From the NCBI GenBank assembly GCA_029210695.1, contig JARGFH010000020.1, positions 1-61,365 of the forward strand: 61,365 bases of DNA, read 5' to 3'. This document shows, piece after piece, positions 5,502 through 58,872 of the stretch. The position numbers and the translations under genes are program-made. The stretch is from Acidimicrobiia bacterium. GTDB lineage: Bacteria > Actinomycetota > Acidimicrobiia > Spongiisociales > JAHEDJ01. The notes beneath the pieces were generated by a model, which saw only the letters and a list, made by a program, of their open reading frames with translations, ran no database searches and had not been told where the DNA came from. Within the stretch, counting starts at the first letter, position 1. Each line of letters begins with the position of its first letter.

Positions 5502-5566
5502 GGAGCCGGGATGATAGTGGAGTCGCGGGTCGCGGGTCGCGGGCACCTGGTACGTTGTACGTCCCC

Positions 5567-41289: not shown

Positions 41290-41598
41290 ATGGATCCGTT
41301 GAGACATCCCGACCTCATCGAAGTATCTCGGCACCTTCGCCGGCAATGGGAACGAGTTGTCGAGGCCGAACAGGCGGCCGCCCGGGCAACGTGGTTACGC
41401 CGACGTTCGCTGAGAGACCGCCTGATCGACGCTGAAGACCGTCGAGAACACACAACCCTTTGGTGCCTTGACGGCCGCTCCCCCGCCGGCCTCGTGCATG
41501 CCGTTGGTTCTGATCATGTCGTGCTACTCACAGGTGATCGGAGCCGTTTCGTCCTCCTGCACCAGATCGTCGCGGCGGGATTCGAAGACGCCGAATGA
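41290..41598 (+). CDS. Hypothetical protein
   Basis: aagga RBS; 102 aa ending in the first repeat unit. Confidence 0.7.
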   Translation: MDPLRHPDLIEVSRHLRRQWERVVEAEQAAARATWLRRRSLRDRLIDAEDRREHTTLWCLDGRSPAGLVHAVGSDHVVLLTGDRSRFVLLHQIVAAGFEDAE

Positions 41599-41740
41599 AA
41601 TCCGAAGACGCCGAATGAAATCCGAAGACGCCGAATGAAATCCGAAGACGCCGAATGAAATCCGAGAACGCCGAATGAAATCCGAGAACGCCGAATGAAA
41701 TCCGAAGACGCCGAATGAAATCCGAGAACGCCGAATGAAC
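41581..41740 (+). repeat. 8 x 20-bp tandem repeat tccga(ag/ga)acgccgaatgaaa encoding seven ATGA-coupled heptapeptide ORFs
   Basis: Units start every 20 bp from 41581; variant order D,D,D,D,N,N,D,N; ATG at 41595+20n. Confidence 0.97.
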
Positions 41741-42812: not shown

Positions 42813-42891
42813 TGTACCGCCGTGACCTGTGGCAATACGGTGAGGGGCGGAGAGGAACAACTCAACTACATCGGGAGCCGCTGTGGCAGGA

Positions 42892-43365
42892 ATGAGCCGT
42901 CGGACGTTTTTGAGTCGCGCCACCGCCTCGATCGTCGGTGGGATCGGCGCCCTGATGGGAATACCGACCGTCGCCTACCTCATTTCTCCCGCCAAAGCTC
43001 GCGGTGGTCTCGGCGTCGAGGCAATCCCACTCGGACCGATCAGCAAAGTCCCCATCGGGGAACCCACCCTCTTCAAAGCAACCATTGAGCGCAAGACCGG
43101 GTGGGTCACACAAGCCGAGGAGCTGGCCTTCTACGTCTCCACCGACGACGGCCGCAACTTCACGGCCATGTCCAACGTCTGTACACACCTGGGATGCCGG
43201 GTGCGTTGGGTCGACGACGAGGAGGAGTTCTTCTGTCCGTGCCACAACGCCGTCTTCTCGAAGACGGGCACCGTTGTGTCAGGTCCACCTCCCAGGGCTC
43301 TCGACCAATACGAGCTTTCCGTTGAGGACGGCCAGCTCTTCGTTGTGGGAAAGATCGAAGCATGA
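42892..43365 (+). CDS. qcrA: Rieske iron-sulfur subunit of quinol:cytochrome c reductase (complex 1)
   Basis: Tat signal SRRTFL, CTHLGC...CPCHNAVF, GPPPRAL. Confidence 0.92.
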   Translation: MSRRTFLSRATASIVGGIGALMGIPTVAYLISPAKARGGLGVEAIPLGPISKVPIGEPTLFKATIERKTGWVTQAEELAFYVSTDDGRNFTAMSNVCTHLGCRVRWVDDEEEFFCPCHNAVFSKTGTVVSGPPPRALDQYELSVEDGQLFVVGKIEA

Positions 43366-44054
43366 TCGAGAAGGTCAGCGCCTGGTTCGAGGAGCGGATG
43401 GGATGGAAGCCGATATGGAAGGCGCTGGCCCTCCGCAATATCCCCAAGGTCAACTGGTTGTACACGCTGGGTAGCGCCACGCTCCTGGTCACGGTGAACC
43501 AGATTCTGACCGGCATCCTTCTCACCATCTACTACGTGCCGAGTCCGCAGGATGCCTACAACAGCGTTGCCTTCATAACGAACGAAATCACGGCCGGCTG
43601 GCTCATCAGAGGTCTGCATCACTGGGGGGCCAGCGCCATGGTCGTCCTGGCCGGACTCCACATGCTGCGTGTAGTTTTCCACGGCGCCTACAAGTTCCCC
43701 CGCGAGATCACCTGGTTCACGGGACTCGGCCTCCTCGCCGTCACGATGGCCTTCGGTTTCACCGGGTACCTGCTGCCGTGGGATCAGAAGGCCTACTGGG
43801 CCACGACCGTTGGTACCCGAATGCTGGAGGTCACACCCGTCATCGGCGACTGGCTCCTCCGGATCGCCCGCGGCGGTGAAGAACTGTCGGCGGTGACCCT
43901 GACCCGGTTCTACGGGACTCATGTATGGGTGCTCCCCTCGGTGCTCTTGATACTCCTGGGGATCCATATGTTCCTCGTCGTCCGGATCGGTATCAGCGCA
44001 CCTCCCACTGCTGAAGAGGCGGCTGAAGAGCCCGATGTGGAGGTCGAGGCATGA
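43362..44054 (+). CDS. qcrB: Cytochrome b6-type (split, N-terminal) subunit, complex 1
   Basis: GWLIRGLHHWGAS...LHMLRV, GYLLPWDQKAYWA, FYGTH-x14-H. Confidence 0.92.
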   Translation: MIEKVSAWFEERMGWKPIWKALALRNIPKVNWLYTLGSATLLVTVNQILTGILLTIYYVPSPQDAYNSVAFITNEITAGWLIRGLHHWGASAMVVLAGLHMLRVVFHGAYKFPREITWFTGLGLLAVTMAFGFTGYLLPWDQKAYWATTVGTRMLEVTPVIGDWLLRIARGGEELSAVTLTRFYGTHVWVLPSVLLILLGIHMFLVVRIGISAPPTAEEAAEEPDVEVEA

Positions 44055-46438
44055 AACCGGAGGATCGCGCCGAGTACCTAGAGGAGTACGCCAAGGACAA
44101 GAAGAAAGGGATTCCGTTCTTTCCGGATGCGGTGTTCAAGGACGTCCTGGTTGCCCTCATCGTCCTCATCGTCCTAATCGGTCTCGCCTACTTCGGTGGC
44201 GCGCCCCTGGACGAACGCGCCGACCCATCGGATTCCGAATACACCCCTCGACCCGAGTGGTACTTCCTCTGGCTCTTCCAACTGCTCAAGTATTTCCCCG
44301 GCAACCTCGAGTTCGTCGGCGTCATCCTCCTGCCCGCCCTCGGATTCGCCGTTCTCTTCGCCATGCCGTACCTGGACAGGACCAAGCTCCGACACTTCCG
44401 TAGCCGCAACTGGGTGATGGCATCAACCGGCGTCGCCGTGGTAGCCATGGGGTTTCTCACCGTCCAGTCCATCCGGGAAACCCCGGCACCGGCCGACGTG
44501 ACCGGCGCCATCAACGCCGCCGCTCTCTTCACCGAGAATTGCTCCGTGTGCCACGGCACTTCCATCGATGTCCCGATCGGGATCAATCTGCATGAGACGA
44601 TTGCAGGTGGCCACGAGGGAATGCCCGCCTTCGCGGCCACCCTGTCCACCGACGAAATCGACGCCCTGGCAGGTTTCCTGGTGTCGCCTCAGGGCGGGGC
44701 GATCTTCACCGCCAACTGTGCCGCGTGCCATGATTCGAGTGACCTCGCCGCCGCCAGCCCATTCGAACTCCAGAACGCCCTGAACCTGGGCACGGGCTAT
44801 GCGCCCCACACCGGCCTCGACATCCCCGAATGGTCCGAGTTCCTCTTTGGTCCGGACCGCACCGCGCTCCTCAACTTCCTACTCGCTCCGGACGGGCAGC
44901 GCCTCTATACGCTCTATTGCTCGGAGTGCCACGGAAACTCGATCAGTTGGGACGGCGGGCGAGACGAACTCGAGGCCATCATCCGCCAGGGCGGCAACCA
45001 CCTCGACATGACCCAATGGCGGGACGTCCTGCCGGAAGACCAGATCACCGAACTGGCCCTGTTTGTCTACGAACCATCTGCAGCTCCCCAAGGCGAGCAA
45101 CTGTTTGCACAGCACTGCTCGAGCTGTCACGGTGTTCGCGTGCCGAGCGCTCCCGACATCGAGACCGCCTACAACATCATCGCCGACGGCGCAGAACACC
45201 GCTCGATGCCCCTGTGGGGAGATGTCCTCACAGAGGAACAACTCACCGCACTCACCACCTACACCCTCGAAGCCAGTCGCGGCACCCCGATCCTCATCGG
45301 TCAGCAACTGTTCGGCCGATTGTGTTCGTCCTGCCACGGCGATTTCGGGGAAGGCGGGCCGAACCCCTCGGATCCGGTCAATATCATCGCCCCGATCAGC
45401 ACAGCGTTGTATCTGGAGACTCGCGACGATCTCACGCTGCGGGCGATCATCTCGAGGGGACAACCCGATCAGGGCATGTCGCCGTTCCTCGAGAGCGAGG
45501 GCGGACCGCTCACCGAGGACGAGGTCGAAGCCCTGGTGGCCTTCCTCCGTTCGTGGCAGGCAGACCCACCGGTAGAGTTCCCGCCGGATCTCGTCCGCGG
45601 GCCGGTCGCAGGAGGGAGTACACAGGTGTACACCGCTTTCTGCGCTCAATGCCACGGCATGGACGGTGCGGGCGGACCGGGCTTGGTCGGACCCTCATTG
45701 GTCTCGGCAGACTTCCAGGATTCCTTCACGGATGAGCAACTCCACGAGGCCATCGACCTCGGCCATGCTGCCACTTCTATGATCGCCTGGGGCGAGGTCC
45801 TCACCGCCGATCAGATCCAGGGACTCGTCGACCACATCCGCTCGCTGGGCGGACGCGGAGCGATTGAGACGATCGTCTACGCACGCGACATTGCACCGAT
45901 ATTCCAGGCATCGTGCGCCGGTTGTCACGGAACGTCCGGAGGGTGGGATGCCGCCACCATGGAGTCGGTCATCGAGAGCGGGGACAGCGGTGCGGCCGTC
46001 GTGCCCGGCGATCCCGACGGGAGTATCCTGATGCAGCGCCTCCTCGGCGAGGGTAACTTGATGCCACCCGGCGGAGCGCTGCCGGATGCCCAGATCACAT
46101 TGATCGAACAGTGGATCGCCGGAGGAGCAACCACCGAGGTGACGGTCGGCGACGAACAGGCAACCGGCGACTACACCTGGACGAAGGATGTGCTCCCGAT
46201 TCTGCAGGCCAGTTGTGCTTCGTGCCACGGGTCAGCCGGCGGGTGGGACGCATCCACCTACAGCTCAACGATCAACAGCGGAAGAAGCGGCCCGGCCGTG
46301 GTACCGGGCGATGCCGATAAGAGCACGATGATCCAGCGACTGCTTCGCAATGGCGCCCTCATGCCGCCGGGGACTCCCCTGCCCGAAGAACAGATCGCCA
46401 TCCTGATCTACTGGGTAAACAGTGGAGCCAAGGAGTAG
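44051..46438 (+). CDS. Cytochrome b subunit IV (PEWY) fused to eight c-type cytochrome domains
   Basis: PFFPD...PRPEWYF, 3 TMs, then CSVCH, CAACH, CSECH, CSSCH, CSSCH, CAQCH, CAGCH, CASCH; the last two are Planctomycete-cytochrome-like (VVPGD...MPP...WI). Confidence 0.9.
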   Translation: MKPEDRAEYLEEYAKDKKKGIPFFPDAVFKDVLVALIVLIVLIGLAYFGGAPLDERADPSDSEYTPRPEWYFLWLFQLLKYFPGNLEFVGVILLPALGFAVLFAMPYLDRTKLRHFRSRNWVMASTGVAVVAMGFLTVQSIRETPAPADVTGAINAAALFTENCSVCHGTSIDVPIGINLHETIAGGHEGMPAFAATLSTDEIDALAGFLVSPQGGAIFTANCAACHDSSDLAAASPFELQNALNLGTGYAPHTGLDIPEWSEFLFGPDRTALLNFLLAPDGQRLYTLYCSECHGNSISWDGGRDELEAIIRQGGNHLDMTQWRDVLPEDQITELALFVYEPSAAPQGEQLFAQHCSSCHGVRVPSAPDIETAYNIIADGAEHRSMPLWGDVLTEEQLTALTTYTLEASRGTPILIGQQLFGRLCSSCHGDFGEGGPNPSDPVNIIAPISTALYLETRDDLTLRAIISRGQPDQGMSPFLESEGGPLTEDEVEALVAFLRSWQADPPVEFPPDLVRGPVAGGSTQVYTAFCAQCHGMDGAGGPGLVGPSLVSADFQDSFTDEQLHEAIDLGHAATSMIAWGEVLTADQIQGLVDHIRSLGGRGAIETIVYARDIAPIFQASCAGCHGTSGGWDAATMESVIESGDSGAAVVPGDPDGSILMQRLLGEGNLMPPGGALPDAQITLIEQWIAGGATTEVTVGDEQATGDYTWTKDVLPILQASCASCHGSAGGWDASTYSSTINSGRSGPAVVPGDADKSTMIQRLLRNGALMPPGTPLPEEQIAILIYWVNSGAKE

Positions 46439-46765: not shown

Positions 46766-48562
46766 ATGGAGAAACTTCATTTCTTCGACGAGAACATCCC
46801 CTGTCTCGCCGCCTGTCCTGTCAACACGAATGCCGGCATGTACGTCGCCGCCATCGCAGACGGACAGGATGAACTGGCCTACCTGACTGCTCGCCTCCCC
46901 AATCCGTTTGCGTCCGTCTGCGGACGGGTTTGTGCGGCTCCCTGCGAGGACGCTTGTCGCCGCGGCGAAATCGACAAGCCCATTGCCATTCGGGCACTCA
47001 AGCGGTTCGTCACCGATCAATTCGGTGTGGAAGCGGGCATGGACACCTACAAGCAGGTCGCCGCTCCCCCACTCGAGTCGCGACCACAGAGCGTCGGTAT
47101 CGTCGGAGGGGGCCCGGCCGGCCTGGCTGCCGCCCACGACCTCCGCCGTCTCGGCTACGCCGTCACCCTGTATGAAGCCACCGGGCAACTCGGCGGCATG
47201 ATGCTGCTCGGGATCCCCGAGTACCGCCTGGATCGATCCCTTCTGGCGGCGGAGATCAAAGCCATCACCGATCTGGGTGTTGAGGTGCGTTTGAACACGA
47301 AACTCGGCGAAGGCATCACACTCGACGACGCCCGCCGACGCCACGATGCGGTATTCGTGGCTATTGGGGCGACCCTGGGGCGCGGCCTCGACCTCGAAGG
47401 CCACGACGCAGACGGGGTCTTGAAGGCGATCGAGTATCTCATCAACGCCAACCAGGGTTTTGCTACCGAGGTCGGCCAGAAGGTCGTCGTGATCGGTGGC
47501 GGCGACGTGGCGATGGATGCCGCCAGGACCGCCCTGCGAGCTGCAACATACGATGAGATTGCCCGCCGCCACGCTGAATACGACGAAGAGGACGGGCGCT
47601 CTTCAATGACCGAAGCCCTCGACGTTGCCCGAACGGCTGCGCGGACGGGCGCCCAGGACATCACCATCATGTCCCTGGAGGCCAAACACGAAATGCCGGC
47701 CTCGGAGTTCGAGGTCGAAGAAGCGGAGCACGAGGACATCAAGTTCGTCAACCGCCGCGGCCCCGCCCGGATCCTCACCGCAGATGGCAAGGTCACCGGC
47801 ATAGAGACGATCGGGGTCACGCGCGTATTCGACGAGAACGGCCGCTTCTCTCCTGAATTCGATGACGCCGATCGAGTGACGCTAGAGGCCGACACAATCA
47901 TCATGGCGATCGGCCAGGCCATCGACGTTGAGGCGCTGGGGGCGAATGGTCCGGAGCTCAGTCCTCGCAAGACCATCCAGGTGGGTGACGACAGCCTGGC
48001 GACTTCACTTCCGATGGTATGGGCCGGTGGCGACGCGGCCAGAGGCCCGCGCACCCTCATCGACGCGATAGCAGACGGCCGGATCGCGGCCCGTGAGATC
48101 CACGAGGCATTCGGTGGCAGCTTCGCCGAGCAAGATGCCGGAACCATGGTGCAGCTTGACCAATTCCACCGTCTCGACGACGTCTACGACCGGGTCCCCC
48201 GGGTCGCCGTACCCACGCTGCCGACCGACCGGCGCATCGGTCTGGCAGAAGTCGAAACAGGGTTCACCATCGAAGAGGCCAGGTGTGAGGCACAGAGGTG
48301 TCTGCGCTGCTTCGCCAACATCCTCCTCGACACGGACATCTGTGTGCTGTGCGCGCTGTGCGCCGACGTCTGCCCGCTCGACCTGATCTCGCTGGTGCCT
48401 TCTGAGGACATTCACCCGGACGAGGCGGGTGGCACGGCATTAATGTTGAACGAGCAGAGCTGCATCCGCTGCGCGCTGTGCATAGAGCGATGCCCGACGG
48501 ATGCGTTGTCGATGGGGCTATGGACCGGAGTGGGAGTGCCGACCTTGGGAGCACGGGTATGA
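46766..48562 (+). CDS. FAD/Fe-S oxidoreductase of the GltD/NfnB/DsrL family with C-terminal 2x[4Fe-4S] ferredoxin
   Basis: PCLAACP...CGRVCAAPCEDAC, GGGPAG, GIPEYRL, GGGDVAMD, AGGD, RCLRC, CVLCALCADVCP, CIRCALCIERCP. Confidence 0.9.
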   Translation: MEKLHFFDENIPCLAACPVNTNAGMYVAAIADGQDELAYLTARLPNPFASVCGRVCAAPCEDACRRGEIDKPIAIRALKRFVTDQFGVEAGMDTYKQVAAPPLESRPQSVGIVGGGPAGLAAAHDLRRLGYAVTLYEATGQLGGMMLLGIPEYRLDRSLLAAEIKAITDLGVEVRLNTKLGEGITLDDARRRHDAVFVAIGATLGRGLDLEGHDADGVLKAIEYLINANQGFATEVGQKVVVIGGGDVAMDAARTALRAATYDEIARRHAEYDEEDGRSSMTEALDVARTAARTGAQDITIMSLEAKHEMPASEFEVEEAEHEDIKFVNRRGPARILTADGKVTGIETIGVTRVFDENGRFSPEFDDADRVTLEADTIIMAIGQAIDVEALGANGPELSPRKTIQVGDDSLATSLPMVWAGGDAARGPRTLIDAIADGRIAAREIHEAFGGSFAEQDAGTMVQLDQFHRLDDVYDRVPRVAVPTLPTDRRIGLAEVETGFTIEEARCEAQRCLRCFANILLDTDICVLCALCADVCPLDLISLVPSEDIHPDEAGGTALMLNEQSCIRCALCIERCPTDALSMGLWTGVGVPTLGARV

Positions 48563-49296
48563 CGTTGGGACAACGAATCCGCGAGAGCATCATTGGTCGT
48601 TCGATCTGGCGTGCCACCGACCGAACCACTGAACGCGATCAGGCGGCCGGACACTGGGCGAACTTCTTCCTGCACATCTATCCGGTGAAGGTGCGCCGAA
48701 AGGAGATCACGTTCCGCTACTCCTGGTATCTCGGTGTGGCGTCGCTGGTCCTGTTCGGATCTCTTCTAGTGTCGGGCATCTACCTGATGTTCTTCTACGT
48801 CCCGTCGCCTGCCCAGGCCTACGGCGACATCCTCAACCTGCAGACCCGGGTGGCTTTCGGCCAGTACATCCGTAACGTCCACCGCTGGTCGGCTCACCTC
48901 ATGGTGCTGGTCGTCGCCGCGCACATGGCAAGGGTGTTTTACCGGGGCGCCTACAAGAAACCGCGTGAATTCAACTGGGGTGTCGGCGTCATCCTCCTCG
49001 TGCTCACGCTGCTCCTTTCCTTCACCGGCTACCTGCTCCCCTGGGACCAGCTCGCCTACTGGGCTGTCACGGTCGGCACCGAGATGGCCGCCTTCGTCCC
49101 GCTGATCGGAGACACCGTCAAGGAGATGATGCTGGGTGGGCCGGTAGTTGCATCGTCGACGCTGCTGCGGTTCTACGTTCTGCATGTCGCCGTGCTACCC
49201 ACGGCCGTCGTCCTCCTCATCACGATCCATTTGTGGAGATGGCGCAAAGACAGCATGCTCGACGCGGCGAAGGAGGGTGTTGATGTCGACGCCTAG
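48559..49296 (+). CDS. Cytochrome b6-type (split, N-terminal) subunit, complex 2
   Basis: FFLHIYP, RNVHRWSAH...HMARVF, GYLLPWDQLAYWA, FYVLH-x14-H; ATGA-coupled to the flavoprotein. Confidence 0.92.
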   Translation: MTLGQRIRESIIGRSIWRATDRTTERDQAAGHWANFFLHIYPVKVRRKEITFRYSWYLGVASLVLFGSLLVSGIYLMFFYVPSPAQAYGDILNLQTRVAFGQYIRNVHRWSAHLMVLVVAAHMARVFYRGAYKKPREFNWGVGVILLVLTLLLSFTGYLLPWDQLAYWAVTVGTEMAAFVPLIGDTVKEMMLGGPVVASSTLLRFYVLHVAVLPTAVVLLITIHLWRWRKDSMLDAAKEGVDVDA

Positions 49297-49819
49297 ACCC
49301 GATCAGGAGAATCCTGAGATCATCGCCGGACAACGGGTGCTCGGGGTTGTTCCCGGCAAGCCACCCGGCGGCGACCGCAAGGTTCTGAGCGAGCAGGAGC
49401 CGGTCATGGTCTGGCCGCATCTGCTCGTCCGCCACGCCGTGGCGGCGCTGGTGGTCATCGCCGTCGTTCTGGTTCTCGCCATCTTCTTCGATGCCCCGCT
49501 ACGTGAGATCGCCAACCCCACACTGACGCCGAACCCGGAGAAAGCCCCCTGGTATTTCGCGGCGCTCCAGGAACTGCTGGCGTTGTTCCACCCGCTGGTG
49601 GCCGGTGTGCTGGTTCCGGGCGCCATCGTCCTCGGGCTCTTCGCGCTTCCATACGTCGACAGGACTTCTACGATCGAGCCACGTTTCCGCAAGGTGGCGG
49701 TGGCGACCTTCACGATCTTCATGGTCGTGTGGATAATCCTGACGATTATCGGATTCGCCTTCCGCGGCCCCAACTGGGGTTGGGTGTGGCCCTGGCAAGA
49801 GTGGTACGGAGAGTTATGA
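49283..49819 (+). CDS. Cytochrome b subunit IV-like, complex 2 (APWY variant)
   Basis: VWPHLL, DAPLREIANP, PNPEKAPWYF..LQELL, LPYVD, FRGPNW. Confidence 0.88.
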   Translation: MSTPRPDQENPEIIAGQRVLGVVPGKPPGGDRKVLSEQEPVMVWPHLLVRHAVAALVVIAVVLVLAIFFDAPLREIANPTLTPNPEKAPWYFAALQELLALFHPLVAGVLVPGAIVLGLFALPYVDRTSTIEPRFRKVAVATFTIFMVVWIILTIIGFAFRGPNWGWVWPWQEWYGEL

Positions 49820-50322
49820 GCAACGGAATCGGTCGGAGAGAATTCCTGTCCAGGGCCTGGAAGTGGGGAGCGGCCCTCATCGGCGTCGCCGGGGGCTGGA
49901 CCACCTGGGACATCCTGCAGCCCCGGATCACCGGAGGGTTCGGTGGGATCATCAAGACAAAGGCAGCCGACACGGTGCCGGACGCCACCGTCGAATCCAT
50001 CCGCGCCGCCAGAACCTACCTCACCAGGATCGACGGTGAGGTCGTAGCCCTCTCCGAGAAGTGTCCGCACCTCGGTTGCCGGGTGCCGTGGTGCGATTCG
50101 TCCGGACAATTCGAGTGCCCGTGCCACGGATCGGTCTTCAACCGGGCGGGCGAGTACCGCTCAGGACCGACCCCGCGCGGAATGGACCGCTACGAGTTCG
50201 AGACGATCGACGGCATCGTCTACGTCGACACCGGAACACTGATATCCGGACCGGCGATCGGTGTGGAGACCCTCAACGAACCCGTACGAGGGCCATCGTG
50301 TGAGGACAGCTCGCATGGGTGA
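49816..50322 (+). CDS. Rieske iron-sulfur subunit, complex 2
   Basis: Tat GRREFL, CPHLGC...CPCHGSVF, GPTPRGMD. Confidence 0.92.
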   Translation: MSNGIGRREFLSRAWKWGAALIGVAGGWTTWDILQPRITGGFGGIIKTKAADTVPDATVESIRAARTYLTRIDGEVVALSEKCPHLGCRVPWCDSSGQFECPCHGSVFNRAGEYRSGPTPRGMDRYEFETIDGIVYVDTGTLISGPAIGVETLNEPVRGPSCEDSSHG

Positions 50323-50779
50323 GCGACCGGTTGATCAGGAACTCGAGCAATCGACCGTCAAGTGGATGCAAGCCGGACTGGCCCTGATGGTCGTCCTGGT
50401 GCTGGCCTTCCCGGCCTACCGGCTGCTGGAACCCACCAACCGTGAGGAGGCGCGTCAGCTACTGACGGAGGAGCTGGCTGCGCAGGGCGAGGAACTGTTC
50501 GTCGGCCAGTGCGCCGCCTGCCACGGCGAAAACGGGCTGGACGGACAAATCGGTCCGTCGTTGAACTCGAAGCAGTTCCTCGAAGCCGCCACCGACGCCC
50601 AGATCATCAGCCTCGTCTCGGTCGGCGTCCCGGGCTCCCAGATGGGCGCCTACTCGATCGACTTCGGCGGTCCACTGACCCTGGAGCAAATCACGGGCAT
50701 CGCGACCTACTTGCGCTCGCTGGAAGAAGACGCCCCGGACAACCCGGACTGGCGAGCAGTCGTGGAACCGGGGAACTAG
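50315..50779 (+). CDS. Membrane-anchored monoheme cytochrome c
   Basis: One TM, CAACH, GPSLN, GSQM. Confidence 0.88.
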   Translation: MGERPVDQELEQSTVKWMQAGLALMVVLVLAFPAYRLLEPTNREEARQLLTEELAAQGEELFVGQCAACHGENGLDGQIGPSLNSKQFLEAATDAQIISLVSVGVPGSQMGAYSIDFGGPLTLEQITGIATYLRSLEEDAPDNPDWRAVVEPGN

Positions 50780-51186
50780 TCGCGAGTTCCTAGTCGCGAG
50801 TTACTAGTCGCCCCCTCACGCGTTTCTCCCCCGCTGAAGCTCGCGACACGCGACCCTCTCTCCGTGAGGGGAGAACACGTCAACCCAAACCCGCGACCCC
50901 CAACGCGTTTCTCCCCCGCCGAAACGGGGGAGATGCCGAATCCACGAGGCAGAGGGGCCACCCGCCACACGCGACCCGCGACCCGCTCGAGGCAGAAGGG
51001 CACTCGCGACGCACAGCCCCCCTCCCCTCCAGTCGCTCCGCTCCCTCCAGGACTCCCCCCACTCCGTGAGGAGAGAACACATCAAACGACCCGCCACCCC
51101 CCAATGGGCACTCGCGACACGCGACCCGCGACTCGCGACCCTCTCGAGGCAGAGGGGGCCACCCGCGACCCGCGACCCGCGACTCG
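50778..51186. repeat. Mosaic of REP-like hairpins and (g/a)cgcgac heptamers between convergent operons
   Basis: tctcccccg-ccgaaa-cgggggaga (50910-33); tccgtgaggRgagaacacRtcaa at 50861 and 51063; repeated gaggcaga(g/a)ggg; cgcgacc/cgcgact runs. Confidence 0.75.
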
Positions 51187-51609
51187 CTACGCGTCCGTCG
51201 GGACCTCGTAGGGGTGGCCTTCGTCCTCAGGTGCTTGATACTGCTCGTCGTGTTTGACGACCAGTTGGTCGCTGCGGAATACGTCACCGTCCCAGGCGCC
51301 CTCGACGATCGCACCGACGCCCTCGCGGAACAGCTCCGGCGGAGCTCCCTCGTGCACGACGTGCACTTCATGGGCGCCGTCCGACACCGTGAACTCCACT
51401 CCGTCGGCGGTGGCCACCAGCGTCCCGGCTTCGACCTGACCGCCGAGTCGGAACCGCTCACCATCGGGGAATTGGGCCCTCTGCTCGACCGCCTCGTTGG
51501 GCGTCAAGTAGTAGACGAGGTTCTCGCCGAGGCTGAGAAACACCATCCATCCGATGATCACGACGATCGCTCCGATGGCGGGTAGTACGAACCAGCGATA
51601 TCGAGTCAT
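51187..51609 (-). CDS. ccmE: Heme chaperone CcmE
   Basis: NLVYYLTP, RLGGQV, PELFREG, KHDEQY (HxxxY). Confidence 0.95.
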   Translation of the reverse strand: MTRYRWFVLPAIGAIVVIIGWMVFLSLGENLVYYLTPNEAVEQRAQFPDGERFRLGGQVEAGTLVATADGVEFTVSDGAHEVHVVHEGAPPELFREGVGAIVEGAWDGDVFRSDQLVVKHDEQYQAPEDEGHPYEVPTDA

Positions 51610-51610
51610 G

Positions 51611-51724
51611 TCAGCCCTCCACCCGGCGGCGGACGCTACGCAAGCGCACCGTCAAAAACGCCGCATATCCGATCATGAAGCCGTACACCACTGTGTAGGC
51701 AACAACGACCCATCCGTTAGACAT
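51611..51724 (-). CDS. ccmD: CcmD-like small membrane protein (37 aa)
   Basis: MSNGWVVVAYTVVYGFMIGYAAFLTVRLRSVRRR; between ccmC and ccmE. Confidence 0.7.
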   Translation of the reverse strand: MSNGWVVVAYTVVYGFMIGYAAFLTVRLRSVRRRVEG

Positions 51725-52442
51725 CACGCACCTTCTCGAGATTGGGAGCCGTGATAGCGGCACCGGCGGGGGTGGCATCAGCGGCGGCGGACTGTTCTTC
51801 GAGTTCTTCCTCGCCCCTGGCAATGGCCGTCTTGACGCTCATGAAAGCGAGATAGACCACAGTGAAGGCTCCGACGTTGCTGAGCAACGCCAGCAGGATC
51901 TCCCCATCGATCGGAGAGTCCGGTCGCACCACCGTGATCCCCTGGTGCAGCGTGCGCACGATGATCACCGAAACGTACGACAGCGGCACGAGGAAGAAGG
52001 CGACGATGCCCAGCACCGCGGATCTCGTCGCCCGCATGGCCGGGTCGGGAATGCTGCGGCGCAAGGCCAGGTACCCGAGGTAGACAAAGAACATGAGGGC
52101 GGTCGTCATCATGCGGGCGTCGCCCCAGTCCCAGAACGTCCCCCACACCGGGTAACCCCAGATCATGCCGGTCATGAGCGCCAGTGCGGTAAAGAACACA
52201 CCGACCGAAACGCTCGACTCGGCAATTCGATCGTAAACGGGCTTGCGTCTCGCCAGCCACAGGATCGAGGCGCCGAACGTCACGAGAAACGAGAGGTAGG
52301 CAAGCCACGCAGAAGGAACGTGGACGTACATGATGCGGGTGTATTCGCCCTGCAACTGATCGAGCGGCGCCTGGCCACCGAAGTAGAAGCCGACCAGAAC
52401 CGCCGCCAGGGCGGTCAACCCGAGTATTCGATGTCTATTCAA
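51717..52442 (-). CDS. ccmC: Heme exporter protein C
   Basis: IMYVHVPSAW, WWD motif WGYPVWGTFWDWGDARM, RTLHQ. Confidence 0.93.
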   Translation of the reverse strand: MNRHRILGLTALAAVLVGFYFGGQAPLDQLQGEYTRIMYVHVPSAWLAYLSFLVTFGASILWLARRKPVYDRIAESSVSVGVFFTALALMTGMIWGYPVWGTFWDWGDARMMTTALMFFVYLGYLALRRSIPDPAMRATRSAVLGIVAFFLVPLSYVSVIIVRTLHQGITVVRPDSPIDGEILLALLSNVGAFTVVYLAFMSVKTAIARGEEELEEQSAAADATPAGAAITAPNLEKVRDV

Positions 52443-53119
52443 CGTGAGGCCTCCTCGAGAAATCGGGCGGTCAGCACACCTACCACTGCCAGCCCGAGTA
52501 CCACGGCAAGTAGCAGAAGGATGGGAGTGAGGATACTTGACTTCTGCGCCAACGCTTCATACGTCTGTGATGCTCCGACGAGCAACGGGAGAGCCAGTGG
52601 TGCCACCAGCAGCGGTGCCAGCGTGTTGCGAGAGCGCAGACCGGCGGTGATACCGGAGGCGAGCGTGCCGATGAGCGCCAGGCCGACGGCCATCAGCACA
52701 AGGACCAGGATCAGGATCGCCCACCCGTCTACCGGGTCCGGGTTGTAGAGGATGATGGTGGCGGGAGCGAGCACTCCTTCGAACACGAGCAACAGGAGGA
52801 AGCTCGCCACCACCCTGCCTGCGAACTGCGCGGCCGGGTCAACGCCGAGCAACACCATCATCTCGCGATTGGCCGCGCTTTCCGTGGCCGACTGTCGAAA
52901 GGTGACCAGCATCCCGAACAGCAGGGTCACGACCCAGAACATTCCGGGTCCGATCGAGGCGATGAGGGGCCGGTCGGTTCCAATTGCCAGCGGAATGAGG
53001 AGCAGTGCAACCGCTCCAAACGGGATGGTGATGTTCAGGACCTCGCCGGTTCGGCCCTCGACCCGCAGATCCTTCAGAACGATCTCGTATGCCTGACCCC
53101 AGAACGATGGACCGCTCAT
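52439..53119 (-). CDS. ccmB: Heme exporter protein B
   Basis: KDLRVEGR, PGMFWV, LAPLLVAPLALP; between ccmA and ccmC. Confidence 0.88.
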   Translation of the reverse strand: MSGPSFWGQAYEIVLKDLRVEGRTGEVLNITIPFGAVALLLIPLAIGTDRPLIASIGPGMFWVVTLLFGMLVTFRQSATESAANREMMVLLGVDPAAQFAGRVVASFLLLLVFEGVLAPATIILYNPDPVDGWAILILVLVLMAVGLALIGTLASGITAGLRSRNTLAPLLVAPLALPLLVGASQTYEALAQKSSILTPILLLLAVVLGLAVVGVLTARFLEEASR

Positions 53120-53772
53120 CGTGACCTCCCCGCGATCACGGTCCCACCGGTCAGCTCATAGGTCGATTGCACCAGCGGCAACATGCGGTCGAGTTCGTGC
53201 GAAACGAAGACGGCGGCGCCGCCGCGCGAACGGACGTTGTCGACCACGGCGTCGACCAGCTGCGCGGCTTCCCGATCTAGTCCGGCGTGGGCCTCGTCGA
53301 GCAGCAGTAGATCCGGCCTGGTCAGAATCACCCTGGCGAACTCCACGCGTCGCTGCATCCCATGCGACGACTGCTCCGCCCGCCGGTGTTTCGCCCCACC
53401 CAGCCCGACCACGTCGAGCATCTCATCCACCCGCTCGTCTGTATGACCCGACAACCGGGCGACGAAGGAGAGGTTCTCACGCAGGGTCAACTGCGGGTAG
53501 AGCGCCGGCTGATGGCCGATGAGGGCGATCCGGCGCCGGATCGCATAAGCGGTCGATTCGCCCATCTCGGTACCGAACACCGCCACCGACCCCTCCGTCG
53601 GTCGCAGCAAAGTGGCCAGCACCCGCAGCAGCGTCGACTTGCCGGAACCATTCGGCCCGACGATCCCGGCTGCTTCTCCGGACGGCACCGCCAGTTCCAC
53701 GCCTTTCAATACCGGAACCCGGCCGTATCGAACGGCGACGCCGTGCAGCTGCACTGTGGGAGGTGTGGACAT
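53116..53772 (-). CDS. ccmA: Heme ABC exporter ATP-binding protein
   Basis: GPNGSGKST, IGHQPALYPQLT, SSHGMQRR, LLLDE, VSH. Confidence 0.88.
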   Translation of the reverse strand: MSTPPTVQLHGVAVRYGRVPVLKGVELAVPSGEAAGIVGPNGSGKSTLLRVLATLLRPTEGSVAVFGTEMGESTAYAIRRRIALIGHQPALYPQLTLRENLSFVARLSGHTDERVDEMLDVVGLGGAKHRRAEQSSHGMQRRVEFARVILTRPDLLLLDEAHAGLDREAAQLVDAVVDNVRSRGGAAVFVSHELDRMLPLVQSTYELTGGTVIAGRSR

Positions 53773-53889
53773 GACAGACGAGTGTACGCCCGCAGCCCCC
53801 GGCGCCGAAACGCGCGCCCGGGTTGCCACCACCTGCTGCCTCCCGTTCATCACCTTCCTAGGTTTCCATGAGCTGGTTTCCACCAGGCA

Positions 53890-53926
53890 GGGCCCAAGGA
53901 CACCGGTGCGCGAGGACTTTGCGCTG
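53890..53926. promoter_or_regulatory. DosR/DevR-like boxes in the divergent ccm promoter region
   Basis: GGGCCCAAGGACAC (53890) and AGGACTTTGCGCTG (53913); TATCCT at 53950. Confidence 0.4.
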
Positions 53927-54042
53927 TTGGTGTGTTTCCGATATACCCGTATCCTCTGGAATGAGAAACGGGGGACCGACCCTGAATCGCCGCTGAAACG
54001 GCTCATTCAAACGGTGATCCCCATGGAGGAAGGCACAGCACA

Positions 54043-56082
54043 ATGAACGCGACCCTCGGATATCTCTCGATCCTCGCCGCAGTGGTGGGAGCGCTCGGTA
54101 TCACCGTGCGGGGTTTCATCGCCATGCGAGATCCGGAGCGGGCGAACAAGGGGTATCTGGGGTTGCCCGTCATCCTGTTCTTGTCCGGAGCCGTCGGCGC
54201 AATATTCTTCCTGGAACTCGGGCTCCTCACCGACGACTTCTCGATCAAGTACATCGCCAACAACTCGTCATCCACCACCCCGTTTCTCTTCAAGTTCGCT
54301 TCGGGATGGGCATCCCTGGAGGGATCGATCGTGTTGTGGGGCCTGGTTCTGGCCGGCTTCACATTCGCCGTGTACGCGCGGTTCTTCCGTAGCCAAACCG
54401 GCGACCGGCTCGCAGCCGGTGCTCTGGCGATCATGGGTCTCATCTCCCTCTACTTCTTCGGGCTGATGGCCACGATCTCCGACCCCTTCGCCCGCTGCGT
54501 ACAAACGTTCAGCGACGGGGTCGGTTGCGTGACCGGCGAGAACGCGATTCTCGCCAACGTGATCTCCTCCCCGATCGAAGGGCGCGGTGCCAACGCACTG
54601 CTCCAGAACCACTGGCTCATGGCGCTGCATCCCCCAACGCTCTACGTCGGCTATGTCGGGCTGAGCGTCCCCTTTGCGTTTGCCATCTCGGCGCTCATCC
54701 TTCGGACGACCGGGGCGGACTGGCTGACCCGGACCCGTAATTGGACGGTGTTCGCCTGGATGTTCCTCACCGCCGGCATCGTGCTCGGTGGGCTCTGGTC
54801 GTATGAAGTGCTCGGCTGGGGCGGTTACTGGGCGTGGGATCCGGTTGAGAATGCCTCCTTCATGCCGTGGCTGGTAGCGACGGCCTTCTTGCACTCGTCG
54901 GTCGTACAGGCCAGGCGCGGGATGCTGCAATCGTGGAACTTCGTCCTCGTGATCACCACCTTCGCCCTCACGATTCTCGGTACCTTCTTGACCCGCTCCG
55001 GAGTGATCGTCTCGGTCCACAGCTTCTCTCAATCCGCCATCGGGCCGGCCCTGTTGATCTTCCTGGTGGTCGTGCTGCTGGGATCGCTCGGGCTCTTCGC
55101 CACCCGCGCCCACACCATCGCCTCTTCGCCCCGGCTCGATTCGCTCAGCAGCCGGGAAGGGGTGTTCTTGTTCAACAACCTTCTCCTGACGGTGTTCGCG
55201 TTCATGGTGCTGACCGGGACGCTCTACCCGCTCTTCGTCGAGGCGTTCTCCAACTCGACGGTGGGCGTCGGACGTCCATTCTTCGATCGCATGGCGATCC
55301 CGCTGTCCTTCCTCTTGTTGCTGGCGATGGGGATCGGACCGGTCTCGCCCTACCGGGCGGCGAGTGCCCGAGTCGTCTGGGAGCGGATTCGCTGGCCTTT
55401 CCGGGTGGCCCTCGGTGCCGCGGCGCTGGCCGTCGTGTTCGGCTACGGGAATTCGTTCCTGCTGCTCGGTGTCCTGACCGCGGTATTCGTCATGGGTGTG
55501 ATCATCCACAACCTCTACAACTCGGCCGGGATCCGGGCAGGCAAGCTCGGCATTGGACGGAGACAGGCTGCCGTACGGATCATGCGTGGCGACCCGCACT
55601 ACTGGGGCGGGCAGATCTCCCACCTGGGTGTCGCAATCCTGGCGCTGGGCATCGCCTTCTCTGCGAATTTGTCGGAGACGGCCACGATTTCTATCGACGC
55701 CGGCGACACCGTCAACTTCGCCGGATTCGAGGTGACCTATGAGGAGGCGTTCAGCCGGCAGGAACCCGGCCGGTTTGTCACCGGTGCAGACATCACCGTG
55801 ACCCGGGAGGGGTCGGTCGTCGGCAAGTACCAGCCACGCCTCAACCAGTACGGGAACACCCGCGAGTCCATCGCCACCCCGGAGGTCGACACAATGTTCA
55901 CCGGCGATCTCTACCTCTCACTCCGCAGTATCGATCCTTCCACCGTGGTCCTCGAGGTCTACTGGTTCCCGTTCATCTGGTTGATCTGGGTGGGTGGGTT
56001 CCTGGCGGCTGCGGCCGGAGTCTGGGGATTCGCAGTCAAGAAGCCCGAGCGGTCGATCGTGCCGGACGACACCCGTGTCTGA
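54043..56082 (+). CDS. ccmF: Heme lyase CcmF
   Basis: WASLEGS, LLQNH.LMALHPP.LY.GY, WSYEVLGWGGYWAWDPVENAS, TRSG..SVHSF. Confidence 0.96.
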   Translation: MNATLGYLSILAAVVGALGITVRGFIAMRDPERANKGYLGLPVILFLSGAVGAIFFLELGLLTDDFSIKYIANNSSSTTPFLFKFASGWASLEGSIVLWGLVLAGFTFAVYARFFRSQTGDRLAAGALAIMGLISLYFFGLMATISDPFARCVQTFSDGVGCVTGENAILANVISSPIEGRGANALLQNHWLMALHPPTLYVGYVGLSVPFAFAISALILRTTGADWLTRTRNWTVFAWMFLTAGIVLGGLWSYEVLGWGGYWAWDPVENASFMPWLVATAFLHSSVVQARRGMLQSWNFVLVITTFALTILGTFLTRSGVIVSVHSFSQSAIGPALLIFLVVVLLGSLGLFATRAHTIASSPRLDSLSSREGVFLFNNLLLTVFAFMVLTGTLYPLFVEAFSNSTVGVGRPFFDRMAIPLSFLLLLAMGIGPVSPYRAASARVVWERIRWPFRVALGAAALAVVFGYGNSFLLLGVLTAVFVMGVIIHNLYNSAGIRAGKLGIGRRQAAVRIMRGDPHYWGGQISHLGVAILALGIAFSANLSETATISIDAGDTVNFAGFEVTYEEAFSRQEPGRFVTGADITVTREGSVVGKYQPRLNQYGNTRESIATPEVDTMFTGDLYLSLRSIDPSTVVLEVYWFPFIWLIWVGGFLAAAAGVWGFAVKKPERSIVPDDTRV

Positions 56083-56488
56083 TTCGATCCGCAAAATCGT
56101 GGCGGCCGTGGTGACCATCGGCCTGGCGGTCGTTGTCGTGGTCGGTCTCGTCCAGGGCGACCGTACGGATGAAGATCGAGCCCGGTCTATCGGCAGTCGG
56201 GTCAAGTGCCCGGTCTGCCAGGGCGTCGCTATCGCCGATTCACCGTCCGAAACTGCCAGGGCGATGATGGACGTCGTCGAAGAGCGAATCGCAGACGGGT
56301 GGTCCGACCGGCAGATCATCGACTACTTCTCCGAGCGGTACACCGACAGCATCGTCATCGACCCACCGTTCTCCGGGAACACTCTGCTCGTCTGGCTGCT
56401 CCCGATCCTGGCAGTAGTCGCAGGCTTCTTCATGATCTTCTCCCGGCGCAAGACGCCGGTGCCAAAAACCGATGAGGTGAAACAGTGA
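56075..56488 (+). CDS. ccmH: Cytochrome c biogenesis protein CcmH/CcmL
   Basis: VKCPVCQGVAIADS, YFSERY, LVWLLP. Confidence 0.9.
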   Translation: MSDSIRKIVAAVVTIGLAVVVVVGLVQGDRTDEDRARSIGSRVKCPVCQGVAIADSPSETARAMMDVVEERIADGWSDRQIIDYFSERYTDSIVIDPPFSGNTLLVWLLPILAVVAGFFMIFSRRKTPVPKTDEVKQ

Positions 56489-57330
56489 GCAACTTCAACC
56501 AGGAGTCGTACGACCGAGCCGCCGCCCGCAAGGAACTCGCCCTGACCGATCTCGAAGAACTGGCCCAGCAGGTGGAAGACGGTGAGATCGACGCAGCCAC
56601 CGCGGCAGGACTCCGGAGCGGCTACGAGGCTGAACTTGGCGCGGCCGAGGCCGAACTGGCCACACTCGGCCCACCGCCAGCCCGCAAGAAGTCGCCCGCC
56701 TCGGCTCAGGCGCCGGGTTCGACCAAACGAGCTCCGAGCGAGACGGGGCAGCCTGCCGGGAAATCGAGCGACCTCAATACGCGCCTGCTGGTCGGCGCCG
56801 GAATTCTCATCGTCGCCCTCGTCGTGATTCTCATCTCGGTGCAGAATTCGGCACAGCCGGATCCGGCCGCGGTGGGCACCCAGGTGACAACCGCAAGCGG
56901 CGAGGGCCCCTGCGCGGAACTGGCCGGCGCGTTGACCAATCACTCCGACAACGGCTTTCGTCTGGCGCTGGCCGATTGCTACGCAGACGTCGGAGACGCC
57001 ATGTCGGCGATCGAGCATTACCGGGCCGTCGCCGAGGCCGAAGGCGCCACCGACGGCGAGGTAGCCCGGGCCAACGTGGGACTCGGTTTTCTCAACCTCC
57101 AAATCGGAGAGCTCACCAAGGCTGCCGACTACATGCGCCTGGCACTCGAGCGCGACGCCGCCAATATCGAAGCTCAGTACTTCCTGGGCATGATGCTGGT
57201 CTACGACCTCGGCGACCCGGCCGCAGGGGCCCCCTACTTGGAATCGGTACTCGCCACGCCCGATTTGCCGGAGACCGTGGTTCTCGAAATCCAGGCGGCG
57301 CTCGACGTCGCAGCGGGCGAAGGCTCATGA
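56485..57330 (+). CDS. ccmI: CcmI/CycH-like TPR protein
   Basis: LEELAQQVEDGEID, one TM, C-terminal TPR-like helices; position in the ccm operon. Confidence 0.65.
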   Translation: MSNFNQESYDRAAARKELALTDLEELAQQVEDGEIDAATAAGLRSGYEAELGAAEAELATLGPPPARKKSPASAQAPGSTKRAPSETGQPAGKSSDLNTRLLVGAGILIVALVVILISVQNSAQPDPAAVGTQVTTASGEGPCAELAGALTNHSDNGFRLALADCYADVGDAMSAIEHYRAVAEAEGATDGEVARANVGLGFLNLQIGELTKAADYMRLALERDAANIEAQYFLGMMLVYDLGDPAAGAPYLESVLATPDLPETVVLEIQAALDVAAGEGS

Positions 57331-57929
57331 CCGATACCGACCTCGCCGTCGAGCCGACCCCGGACGCTCAGCAACGCAATCTCAAACTGTGGATAACCAC
57401 CGGCATCGCGGCAGTTGCGTTCATCGCGCTGGCGCTCGTGTTCAACAGCCGGTTCGGCGTTGACCCCCGGGTCGTCGAATCCCCGCTCATCGGGAAACCC
57501 GCCCCGAACGTCGAACTTGAGGTTCTCGAGCAGGACGCCATCTCCGGCCCCATGTCCATCTCGGAACTTCGCGGCAGTGTGGTTGTCGTCAACTTCTTTG
57601 CCTCGTGGTGCATCCCCGCCTGTCGCGACGAGCACCCCCATCTCACTGCGGCCGCCGCCGACTACGCCGACCGGGGCGCGCGATTCATTGGAATAGCCAC
57701 CAGCGACGCGCCGGACGACACTCGCAGGTTCCTGGACGCGCTCGGGTGGGGAACCAACTACACCTATCTCAACGACCCCGATGCCAGGGCCGGGGTCGAG
57801 TTCGGCACGTTCGGAGTTCCGGAGACGTTCGTGATCGACCGGGAGGGGCTCGTCACGCACAAATTCACAGGCCCGGTCACATACGATGAACTGGTGGTCG
57901 AGTTGGAGAAGGCGTTGGCGGGCTCATGA
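57327..57929 (+). CDS. ccmG: TlpA/DsbE/CcmG thiol-disulfide oxidoreductase
   Basis: SPLIGKPAP, VVNFFASWCIPACRDE, GVPETFVID. Confidence 0.85.
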   Translation: MTDTDLAVEPTPDAQQRNLKLWITTGIAAVAFIALALVFNSRFGVDPRVVESPLIGKPAPNVELEVLEQDAISGPMSISELRGSVVVVNFFASWCIPACRDEHPHLTAAAADYADRGARFIGIATSDAPDDTRRFLDALGWGTNYTYLNDPDARAGVEFGTFGVPETFVIDREGLVTHKFTGPVTYDELVVELEKALAGS

Positions 57930-57939
57930 TGGGGTGCCC

Positions 57940-57975
57940 GGGACACCTGGCCCCACGGTCGGGGAACTAGGCTCC
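57940..57975. promoter_or_regulatory. Tandem DosR/DevR-like boxes
   Basis: GGGACACCTGGCCC (57940) and GGGAACTAGGCTCC (57962). Confidence 0.5.
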
Positions 57976-58038
57976 TATGCGCCGCCGGAAGGTCGGACGA
58001 ACATGGGTCCGGCGTAGGATCCTGTAGGGGAGACAGGG

Positions 58039-58731: not shown

Positions 58732-58791
58732 TCCGGCTCGGTCCCCTACGTTGCCTTGTAGCAATTCCCAAGCTCGTGCGCCCTTTCACAT

Positions 58792-58805
58792 GGGTCGAAT
58801 GACCC
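58792..58805. promoter_or_regulatory. Palindromic DosR/DevR-like box
   Basis: GGGTC-GAAT-GACCC; weaker boxes at 58732 and 58770. Confidence 0.55.
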
Positions 58806-58872
58806 TACGCGATTTGCGCGCGGATCCGTCATTATGTCGGTACACGAGTCGAGTAGCTCCCGGGGAGGAAGC

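Follow-up and report, generated by a model that had tools for sequence, protein, structure and literature searches.

A conserved flavoprotein-linked Rieske/cytochrome b operon without the heme cN cysteine in Acidimicrobiia

The subject of this study is a five-gene operon in a window of 61,365 nucleotides (the whole stretch of DNA that was analysed; contig JARGFH010000020.1 of assembly GCA_029210695.1) from an Acidimicrobiia bacterium. It encodes an Fe-S flavoprotein followed by the parts of a Rieske/cytochrome b6-type complex. Complexes of this kind are already known from anammox bacteria, and the operon described here is a real and conserved one. Three features are new. As judged from alignments, the operon belongs to a clade that differs from the anammox complexes in lacking the cysteine for heme cN and in having Arg-His where these have the Glu ligand. 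In addition, Acidimicrobiia possess a paralogous operon in which cN is retained and a stand-alone ferredoxin takes the place of the flavoprotein. The initial annotation, made from the sequence alone, had been silent on these two. Third, a ba3 oxidase operon flanks the genes in 14 of 36 loci from the same taxonomic order. No description of an actinobacterial flavoprotein complex, of the Arg-His swap or of the ferredoxin-only paralog was found in the literature, in which subscription journals were thinly covered. We tentatively propose, with a confidence somewhat short of even, that on quinol oxidation one electron passes to cytochrome c and oxygen and the other via an Fe-S wire to NAD+.

The order flavoprotein, cytochrome b6, subunit IV, Rieske protein and cytochrome c, with ATGA coupling of the first two genes, had been read from the sequence before and is confirmed by the open reading frames and their Pfam matches (Table 1). 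All four junctions overlap, those of flavoprotein/cytochrome b and subunit IV/Rieske by ATGA, that of cytochrome b/subunit IV by 14 nt and that of Rieske/cytochrome c by 8 nt, the ATG at 50315 being the best start for the cytochrome c gene. A check of motifs and hydropathy agrees with the reported lack of a signal peptide in the flavoprotein: there is neither a twin-arginine motif nor a hydrophobic N-terminal stretch, and hydropathy peaks only once, in the Cys-rich segment at residue 525. In the Rieske protein, the twin-arginine motif RREF is present.

Table 1. Features of the five-gene operon (window positions) and of two other operons of the same genome (TM, transmembrane; Tat, twin-arginine translocation).
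Feature	Position	Strand	Basis or remark
Fe-S flavoprotein, 598 aa, predicted cytoplasmic	46766..48562	+	Pfam PF14691, PF07992, PF12838 (GltD/Fer4_20, Pyr_redox_2, 2x4Fe-4S)
Cytochrome b6-like subunit, four-helix, 245 aa	48559..49296	+	Pfam Cytochrome_B; heme b ligands His108, His122, His209, His224
Subunit IV, three-helix, 178 aa	49283..49819	+	Pfam Cytochrom_B_C; Qo motif APWY at 49544-49555
Rieske protein, Tat-type, membrane-anchored, 168 aa	49816..50322	+	Pfam Rieske; Ser/Phe potential-tuning pair
Monoheme cytochrome c, membrane-anchored, 154 aa	50315..50779	+	one TM helix, one CxxCH
Lys79, fourth position of the FAD-proximal cluster (with Cys17, Cys56, Cys60)	47000..47002	+	alignment to StnC K170
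SLE at the YRR (2'-phosphate) position, flavoprotein residues 303-305	47672..47680	+	alignment; DsrL rule (PMC7596348)
RCLRC, flavoprotein residues 511-515	48296..48310	+	permuted N-terminal NfnB segment
C-terminal 2x[4Fe-4S] domain, invariant Arg568 and Arg575	48314..48523	+	homologue of the stand-alone ferredoxin in the paralogous operon
His39 of cytochrome b, candidate ligand of a dimer-interface heme b	48673..48675	+	conservation, spacing
YLGV replacing the heme cN attachment motif CxGG	48727..48738	+	alignment to 6rqf_I
Subunit IV Arg50-His51; His51 at the position of the heme cN Glu ligand	49430..49435	+	alignment
ba3-type oxidase operon of this genome	L071:2863-8708 (G000:C115)		with membrane cytochrome c and fusion protein
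Paralog operon	L070:4214-9478 (G000:C109)		ferredoxin, cytochrome b with CLGG, subunit IV with Glu, Rieske, cytochrome c

According to our proposal, a Rieske/cytochrome b6-type complex of subfamily G (APWY) would carry a cytoplasmic, NAD(H)-specific and non-bifurcating flavoprotein, docked by its C-terminal ferredoxin domain, and the sole bifurcation would be the ordinary one of quinol, presumably menaquinol, at Qp. The high-potential electron would travel from the Rieske cluster to the monoheme cytochrome c and on to an oxygen reductase, which may be of ba3 type in many relatives. The low-potential electron would pass from bP to bN, possibly over a His39-ligated interface heme, and reach FAD and NAD+ over four Fe-S clusters. 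With heme cN and the Glu ligand of this heme lost, it would not return to quinone. The net result would be a quinol-driven reduction of NAD+, near equilibrium and reversible, which may serve reverse electron flow or a Q-cycle extended through complex I at low oxygen.

The five-gene arrangement is not a product of chance, since the same order recurs in two sets of loci. In a scan of the genome collection the flavoprotein gene is directly followed by the cytochrome b orthologue in 21 of 25 loci, the other four stopping at a contig edge, and it stands directly upstream of cytochrome b in 40 of 40 loci (one cut by the contig end) drawn from the 51 top cytochrome b matches outside the genome's own. 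The initial annotation had regarded a linkage lacking conservation as refuting its reading; the linkage is conserved, and the actinobacterial host was correctly recognized. The top 52 cytochrome b matches sit in 51 genomes, the own genome included, and form two tiers, an upper one of 70-95% identity, mostly from the same taxonomic order, and a second one of 55-60% identity from other orders, in which cytochrome b and subunit IV are fused. In the phylum, the flavoprotein was found at E 1e-120 or better in 15 of 301 genomes, ten of them outside the class, and cytochrome b is adjacent in the 12 phylum loci looked at (the ten outside the class and two repeats). Relatives with names are nearly all Acidimicrobiia or Actinomycetota genomes. 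Neighbouring clusters in the ESM Atlas are mostly from Acidobacteriota, a 50%-cluster search gave many ~600-aa proteins that are 33-46% identical and carry the same ferredoxin signature at the C-terminus, and one of ten distant homologues is assigned to a taxon, Nitrospinota.

In the class as a whole, 273 of 301 genomes match the window cytochrome b. That the complex is the standard complex III of Acidimicrobiia was nevertheless rejected: about 51 of the 301 genomes carry the high-scoring type, and the ferredoxin-type paralog makes up the bulk of the 273 (gene context checked in 40 and 19 loci).

By sequence, the best PDB relatives of the flavoprotein are 9bov_A, 8oh5_C and 9n5u_A. The GltD-like arms of NfnABC (9bov, 9n5u) and StnC (8oh5) outrank NfnB in sequence as well as in fold, and the AlphaFold2 model (mean predicted local distance difference test, pLDDT, 76.7) finds its best structural match in 9bov_A (Z 33.7, root-mean-square deviation 7.3, 510 aligned residues). 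The body is a circularly permuted GltD/NfnB-type fold for FAD and NAD(H), to which the C-terminal 2x[4Fe-4S] domain is added. Its RCLRC segment shares 15 of 28 residues with positions 30-57 of the genome's own NfnB, which identifies it as the N-terminal NfnB/GltD segment moved behind the Rossmann folds. The two cysteines of this segment, C512 and C515, are invariant in all 58 aligned orthologues and would complete a distal cluster with Cys13 and Cys64. Together with the FAD-proximal cluster of Cys17/56/60 and Lys79 and two clusters in the ferredoxin domain, four clusters are predicted. The earlier label NfnB/DsrL-like holds for the GltD/NfnB-type fold and for the DsrL domain order and fails for the NfnB Glu, the NfnA partner and DsrAB. 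Identity with DsrL was rejected, as no dsrA was found (no match to TIGR02064 in the 97.85% complete genome). An acidic insertion of ~30 aa in the NAD-binding domain (47543-47629), of variable sequence and low pLDDT, resembles the one reported for DsrL-1A and is partly duplicated in the relative L021.

Flavin-based bifurcation, which had also been suggested, was not borne out. Lys79 is invariant in the 58 orthologues and, as in StnC, occupies the place of a Glu in the genome's own NfnB. A search for an NfnA/NfnS partner (PF10418) gave matches on other contigs only, among them the NfnA that lies beside the genome's own NfnB on contig C181. From sequence and model, the flavoprotein appears to be of the non-bifurcating type. 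A double bifurcation, in which the FAD would divide the two electrons of NADH, one going to the complex and the other to a low-potential acceptor (ferredoxin, for example), is very improbable. It could draw on the NfnB fold and on R154, the equivalent of NfnB R201, which is present in all 58 orthologues; however, StnC keeps the same arginine although its FAD is non-bifurcating (PMC10482914), Lys79 replaces the NfnB Glu, the operon contains no NfnA or HydBC-type partner, the NfnA of the genome has its own NfnB, and a single Fe-S exit path would lead from the flavin.

The SLE reported at the YRR position is confirmed by alignment to StnC and NfnABC, both of which have YRR, and the 58 aligned orthologues all read S/A/T-L-E there. 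NAD-using DsrL-1 enzymes carry a motif of the S/T-L-E class at this position (PMC7596348). Because S/A/T-L-E replaces YRR, the DsrL rule makes the flavoprotein probably NAD(H)-preferring, and the preference for NAD put forward in the initial annotation stands as probable.

The N-side quinone site appears to be rebuilt in this clade. Tyr57 and Val60 of cytochrome b align with Cys35 and Gly38 of b6 in 6rqf_I, and His51 of subunit IV aligns with b6f Phe40 and with the Qi-site Asp of bc1 (for heme cn of b6f see PMC7908018). Among 61 flavoprotein-linked Acidimicrobiia loci, two of which are repeats of others, none has the cN Cys and 60 have the His in subunit IV, the remaining one not being covered at this position. 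The APWY motif (subunit IV residues 88-91) is found throughout three aligned sets (42/42, 18/18 and 16/16), and residue 39 of cytochrome b is a His in all 160 subfamily loci. The distance from His39 to the helix-D Arg is 190 residues in the window protein, 204 in a long-loop relative and 204 in both Kuenenia proteins. For Kuenenia, a fifth heme is modelled between the cytochrome b monomers with its His 204 residues before the helix-D Arg (PMC12954380). The matching spacing in the long-loop relative indirectly makes His39 the probable His of this dimer-interface heme.

The main rival to our proposal reverses the flow at this site. The flavoprotein would oxidise NADH, and the Fe-S wire would lead to heme bN and further to a rebuilt, cN-less and bc1-like Qn site with His51 as ligand, either as NDH-2 and complex III in one or with the flavoprotein giving the second Qn electron as in Mitchell's original Q-cycle. 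We regard this as possible but rather doubtful. The direction is downhill, the invariant His51 and Arg50 stand where bc1 has its Qi Asp/Lys, cN-less relatives with no adjacent flavoprotein exist, and the host looks like a heterotroph that respires O2 and nitrate; N-side entry of electrons into b6f is, moreover, a discussed mechanism (PMC7908018). On the other hand, the complex I span would be wasted, and a plain NADH inlet would be redundant because the genome has complex I, NDH-2 and two further Rieske/cytochrome b operons, an argument from complex I and NDH-2 that has likewise been made for Kuenenia (PMC12954380). Heme cN, the proposed N-side entry point, is lost in this clade. Rex- and CRP-like sites upstream of 57 flavoprotein genes, where many stretches are coding, were no better than in shuffled sequences, so that an enrichment of Rex-like sites, too, is missing for this rival. 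FNR-like sites, with up to two mismatches allowed, were found at scattered positions in 7 of the 57 stretches, compared with 14 of 285 shuffled ones, and a scan for promoters and terminators gave chance level.

The metagenome loci, i.e. the best 80 of 596, were sorted by partner and by cN state. There are 31 flavoprotein-linked loci, 24 without and seven with the Cys, and 13 ferredoxin-only loci, 12 of them with the Cys. Ten loci have neither partner directly upstream, and eight of these lack the Cys, including L128, in which the flavoprotein stands one gene further away; 26 were too short to be classed by partner. The subunit IV His occurs only in flavoprotein-linked or truncated loci (70/70) and in none of the ferredoxin-only or partner-less ones. 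The Arg-His loci are kin and go back to one evolutionary event: they form one clade of 29 out of 90 rows with an SH-aLRT of 100 in a quick tree, whose long-branch outgroup makes the rooting unreliable, and with it any order of events, be it fusion or loss of the flavin body, and from which the Kuenenia flavoprotein and cytochrome b were left out. The idea that flavoprotein linkage requires cN loss was rejected, as seven of the 31 flavoprotein-linked loci keep CLGG.

Some further observations concern these loci. Those that keep cN beside a flavoprotein (L106, L107, L108, L111, L119 and L122) have the NADP-type YRR wherever the position is visible (6/6), and the cN-less ones read xLE in 20 of 22 visible cases; because the cN-keeping set is one clade, this association counts as one event and not as a statistic. 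In L131, L135, L114 and L117, the fused cytochrome b is cN-less, goes with Glu and has neither ferredoxin nor flavoprotein as neighbour. It is followed in the first two of these loci by a heptaheme cytochrome and by genes that, judged by eye, resemble those of a cbb3-type oxidase.

The ferredoxin-only paralog corresponds to a lower cytochrome b tier of ~50-59% identity and is present once per genome in most of the class, including a second operon with the same order in the genome studied here. In all 19 loci whose context was checked, which represent only a small part of this tier, a stand-alone ferredoxin fills the flavoprotein slot. The cN Cys is kept in all 19 and the subunit IV Glu in 18, the remaining one not being recovered. 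The ferredoxin is homologous to flavoprotein residues ~517-586 and has the same two-Arg motif at the second cluster. This constant position in 19 of 19 loci shows the 2x[4Fe-4S] domain to be the constant partner of this type of cytochrome b, with the flavin body being optional, and we propose that the C-terminal domain may act as docking and wire module. A complex prediction with two cytochrome b, two subunit IV and flavoprotein residues 500-598 scored 0.19 against a mark of 0.32 and, as the controls did not fold, speaks neither for nor against binding.

A looser partnership was also considered, in which the flavoprotein would be co-expressed with little or no attachment, as a soluble NADH:ferredoxin-type or redox-sensing protein, next to a membrane part with an ordinary Q-cycle. 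Partner-less members of the subfamily exist; nevertheless, the strict adjacency with overlapping codons across lineages that are ~50% identical, the ferredoxin domain in the same slot of the paralog and the co-migration reported for the Kuenenia subunits (PMC12954380) make such an arrangement quite improbable.

Neighbours of the paralog operon are a Rex-like regulator, the nuo genes and a divergently oriented COX1-family gene. Its subunit IV (L070:5481-7178) has an Ala-rich repeated module at the N-terminus, with a run of N of the assembly inside this copy; the module recurs in a neighbouring cytochrome (L070:1082-2122) and in a membrane protein of the window (4395-5594).

Several observations support the proposed reduction of NAD+. 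Linkage and translational coupling persist throughout the class and extend to other Actinomycetota. In its fold, its buried Lys and the type of Rieske protein, the system agrees with the Kuenenia complexes, for which the co-migration of the subunits is described and NAD(P)+ reduction argued (PMC12954380). The same article treats preventing menaquinone reduction at heme cN as the larger or main obstacle to the anammox scheme, and it is this heme that is absent here. The Rieske protein carries the potential-raising Ser, where that of the neighbouring PEWY complex has Ala; for Kustd1480 with its Ser/Phe pair, +335 mV was measured (PMC12954380). Finally, a strong electron sink lies nearby: of the 36 same-order loci with 2.5 kb or more of upstream sequence, 14 have a ba3-type oxidase operon in divergent orientation beside the flavoprotein operon, and 22 have an upstream membrane cytochrome c.

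Other points weigh against our proposal. The literature consulted gives no measured activity for any complex of this kind. The loss of cN is compatible with an open Qn site, as bc1 reduces quinone without cN, and since His51 sits at the bc1 Qi Asp position, it could bind quinone together with Arg229. Seven flavoprotein-linked loci keep cN and Glu, so that cN loss is not required for the partnership, and eight cN-less loci, L128 among them, have neither flavoprotein nor ferredoxin directly upstream. The ferredoxin-only paralog, too, has the Ser in its Rieske protein, which makes this residue a trait of the subfamily. The link to ba3 is found in none of 15 loci from other orders, many of them with flanks of only ~3.5 kb, and is not seen in the window. 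A heterotroph needs reverse electron flow less, and RuBisCO was not found in the 97.85% complete genome. With menaquinone at about -70 mV and a membrane potential of about 150 mV, the energy balance appears marginal: in a rough estimate, ~400 meV gained stand against ~400 meV spent, which would place the reaction near equilibrium and make it reversible. The values of -320 mV for NAD and +335 mV for the Kuenenia Rieske cluster were taken from PMC12954380.

The APWY motif, in addition, has been associated with reverse operation (PMC4122944). A confurcating Qp site, at which reduced periplasmic cytochrome c and NADH would jointly reduce menaquinone, could build on this link of the APWY clade to reversed Q-cycles and on the multiheme cytochromes and ccm genes that adjoin the operon in this genus. 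We consider it improbable: the link is one proposal for Geobacter, APWY is also found in the common Acidimicrobiia paralog, and the conserved neighbour is an O2 reductase, a sink and not a donor.

Our proposal could also be taken further, to a complex III turned into a dedicated quinol:NAD+/cytochrome c oxidoreductase with no site for quinone reduction. The Qn site would be closed by the Arg-His plug (or by a His-ligated heme), all low-potential electrons would run via the interface heme and the Fe-S wire to NAD+, and the Q-cycle would be closed through complex I, with more protons per O2 at ba3. The everyday complex III of most Acidimicrobiia would also possess an unrecognised cytoplasmic 2x[4Fe-4S] subunit, a fifth heme and an N-side electron port. 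In this full form we judge it unlikely.

Concerning the host, the genome holds three COX1-family genes, complex I, NDH-2, NarGHI, NfnAB and a NiFe hydrogenase. Contigs C126, C103, C181, C99, C127 and C110 carry NarGHI with NarK transporters, a formate dehydrogenase (in-frame TGA) and its NuoF-like partner, NfnAB, a sulfhydrogenase-like NiFe hydrogenase, NDH-2 and a YgfK/xanthine dehydrogenase cluster; by their sequences, these genes look like a facultative respiratory and fermentative toolkit. The fusion protein of the ba3-type oxidase operon joins cytochrome b, 4Fe-4S, MvhD-like and cytochrome c parts. In many relatives, the ba3 block adjoins the flavoprotein operon with the membrane cytochrome c as its first gene.

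The window itself contains a second, unrelated Rieske/cytochrome b operon at 42883-46438 with PEWY, no CxGG, a Rieske protein lacking the potential-raising Ser, and a subunit IV whose fused c-type domain holds eight CxxCH motifs. It was rejected as part of the system, as it adjoins the flavoprotein operon only in the closest relatives (flavoprotein identity of at least 89%). Directly after the five genes follow a repeat-rich intergenic stretch (50780-51200) and, at 51187-60987, ccm-like cytochrome c maturation genes (named by eye) and two multiheme cytochromes c. An A-type heme-copper oxidase operon (subunit II with c-heme motif, subunits I and III) occupies 378-3975, and a 20-bp tandem repeat of ~8 copies lies at 41580-41740.

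That the low-potential electron from quinol bifurcation reduces NAD(P)+ has been proposed for anammox bacteria and is supported, in the literature consulted, only by Rieske potentials and models. The clade described here suits a test of the as yet unproven formation of NADH from quinol by such complexes because the heme that normally returns electrons to quinone is lost. It is a natural variant with five small subunits and no multiheme or hydroxylamine oxidoreductase (HAO) parts, hence a cleaner test case, and the cN-bearing ferredoxin-only paralog in the same genome provides a built-in control. From this paralog it further seems that, in a widespread class of actinobacteria, the usual complex III includes a cytoplasmic Fe-S subunit.

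The closest known systems are those of Kuenenia stuttgartiensis (Kustd1480-1485 and Kuste4569-4574), and the kinship with anammox complexes that the initial annotation had suggested is supported. The top structural relatives of the flavoprotein, 9bov/9bp5 (NfnABC) and FwdF (5t5i), are those reported for Kuenenia, the window protein and its Kuenenia counterparts have a buried Lys at the FAD-proximal cluster in common, and the Rieske protein finds its best PDB matches in 9rk3 and 9rk4 from Kuenenia. Both systems have a split cytochrome b6 and subunit IV, an in-operon NAD(P) oxidoreductase of NfnABC-like fold with four Fe-S clusters (PMC12954380; predicted for the window) and a Ser-type Rieske protein; His39 is a candidate for the same dimer-interface His. 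Kuenenia has, however, CMGG (supplement of PMC5600118) and a Glu-ligated cN (PMC12954380) where the window has YLGV and His51, and a five-helix subunit IV, hexa- or octaheme c and an HAO-like subunit where the window has three helices and a monoheme c. Unlike Kuenenia, the window host appears to respire O2 and nitrate, and in its relatives the operon often lies beside a ba3 oxidase.

Among the cytochrome b families, subfamily G (PMC5600118), or the APWY clade (PMC4122944), shares with the window the APWY Qo motif, four heme-b His, Rieske and c-type cytochrome genes and an adjacent gene for an NAD(P)-binding, Cys-rich oxidoreductase. The window protein probably belongs here, going by its motifs and the motif table in the supplement of PMC5600118; the tree contained no named references. 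PMC5600118 describes subfamily-G genes next to such oxidoreductases in anammox bacteria and many other cases and lists members lacking CxGG, while PMC4122944 defines the APWY clade including split actinobacterial cytochrome b. The window cytochrome b is short and yet has no CxGG, against the correlation of length and motif given for subfamily G, and Ilumatobacter, an Acidimicrobiia entry in the supplement of PMC5600118, has CLGG, a cN motif like that of the paralog.

In sequence and fold, the flavoprotein is best matched by StnC of the Sporomusa Stn complex and the NfnA subunit of Bfu-type NfnABC, with a permuted GltD-like FAD domain followed by 2x[4Fe-4S] and a Lys at the proximal cluster. 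At 598 aa against 963-1178 aa, it lacks their N-terminal [2Fe-2S], the NuoG/FdhF-like extensions and the HydBC partner and reads SLE instead of YRR. The non-bifurcating FAD of StnC feeds a separate bifurcating module, whereas the partner in the window would be a quinol-bifurcating membrane complex. NfnB/NfnL of NfnAB has in common with it the GltD-type FAD/NAD(P) fold, two N-domain clusters and the Arg near FAD; the window protein differs in Lys for Glu, SLE for YRR, permuted topology, an extra ferredoxin domain and no NfnA partner. DsrL (type 1A) agrees in domain order, NAD-type motif and the ~30-aa insertion (PMC7596348), whereas the window flavoprotein is linked to cytochrome b, has no dsrA found with it and belongs to a ~600-aa family with its own ferredoxin signature. 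As far as its sequence tells, the system works like the anammox complexes but lacks their cN and their multiheme parts, and its flavoprotein belongs neither to NfnB nor to DsrL.

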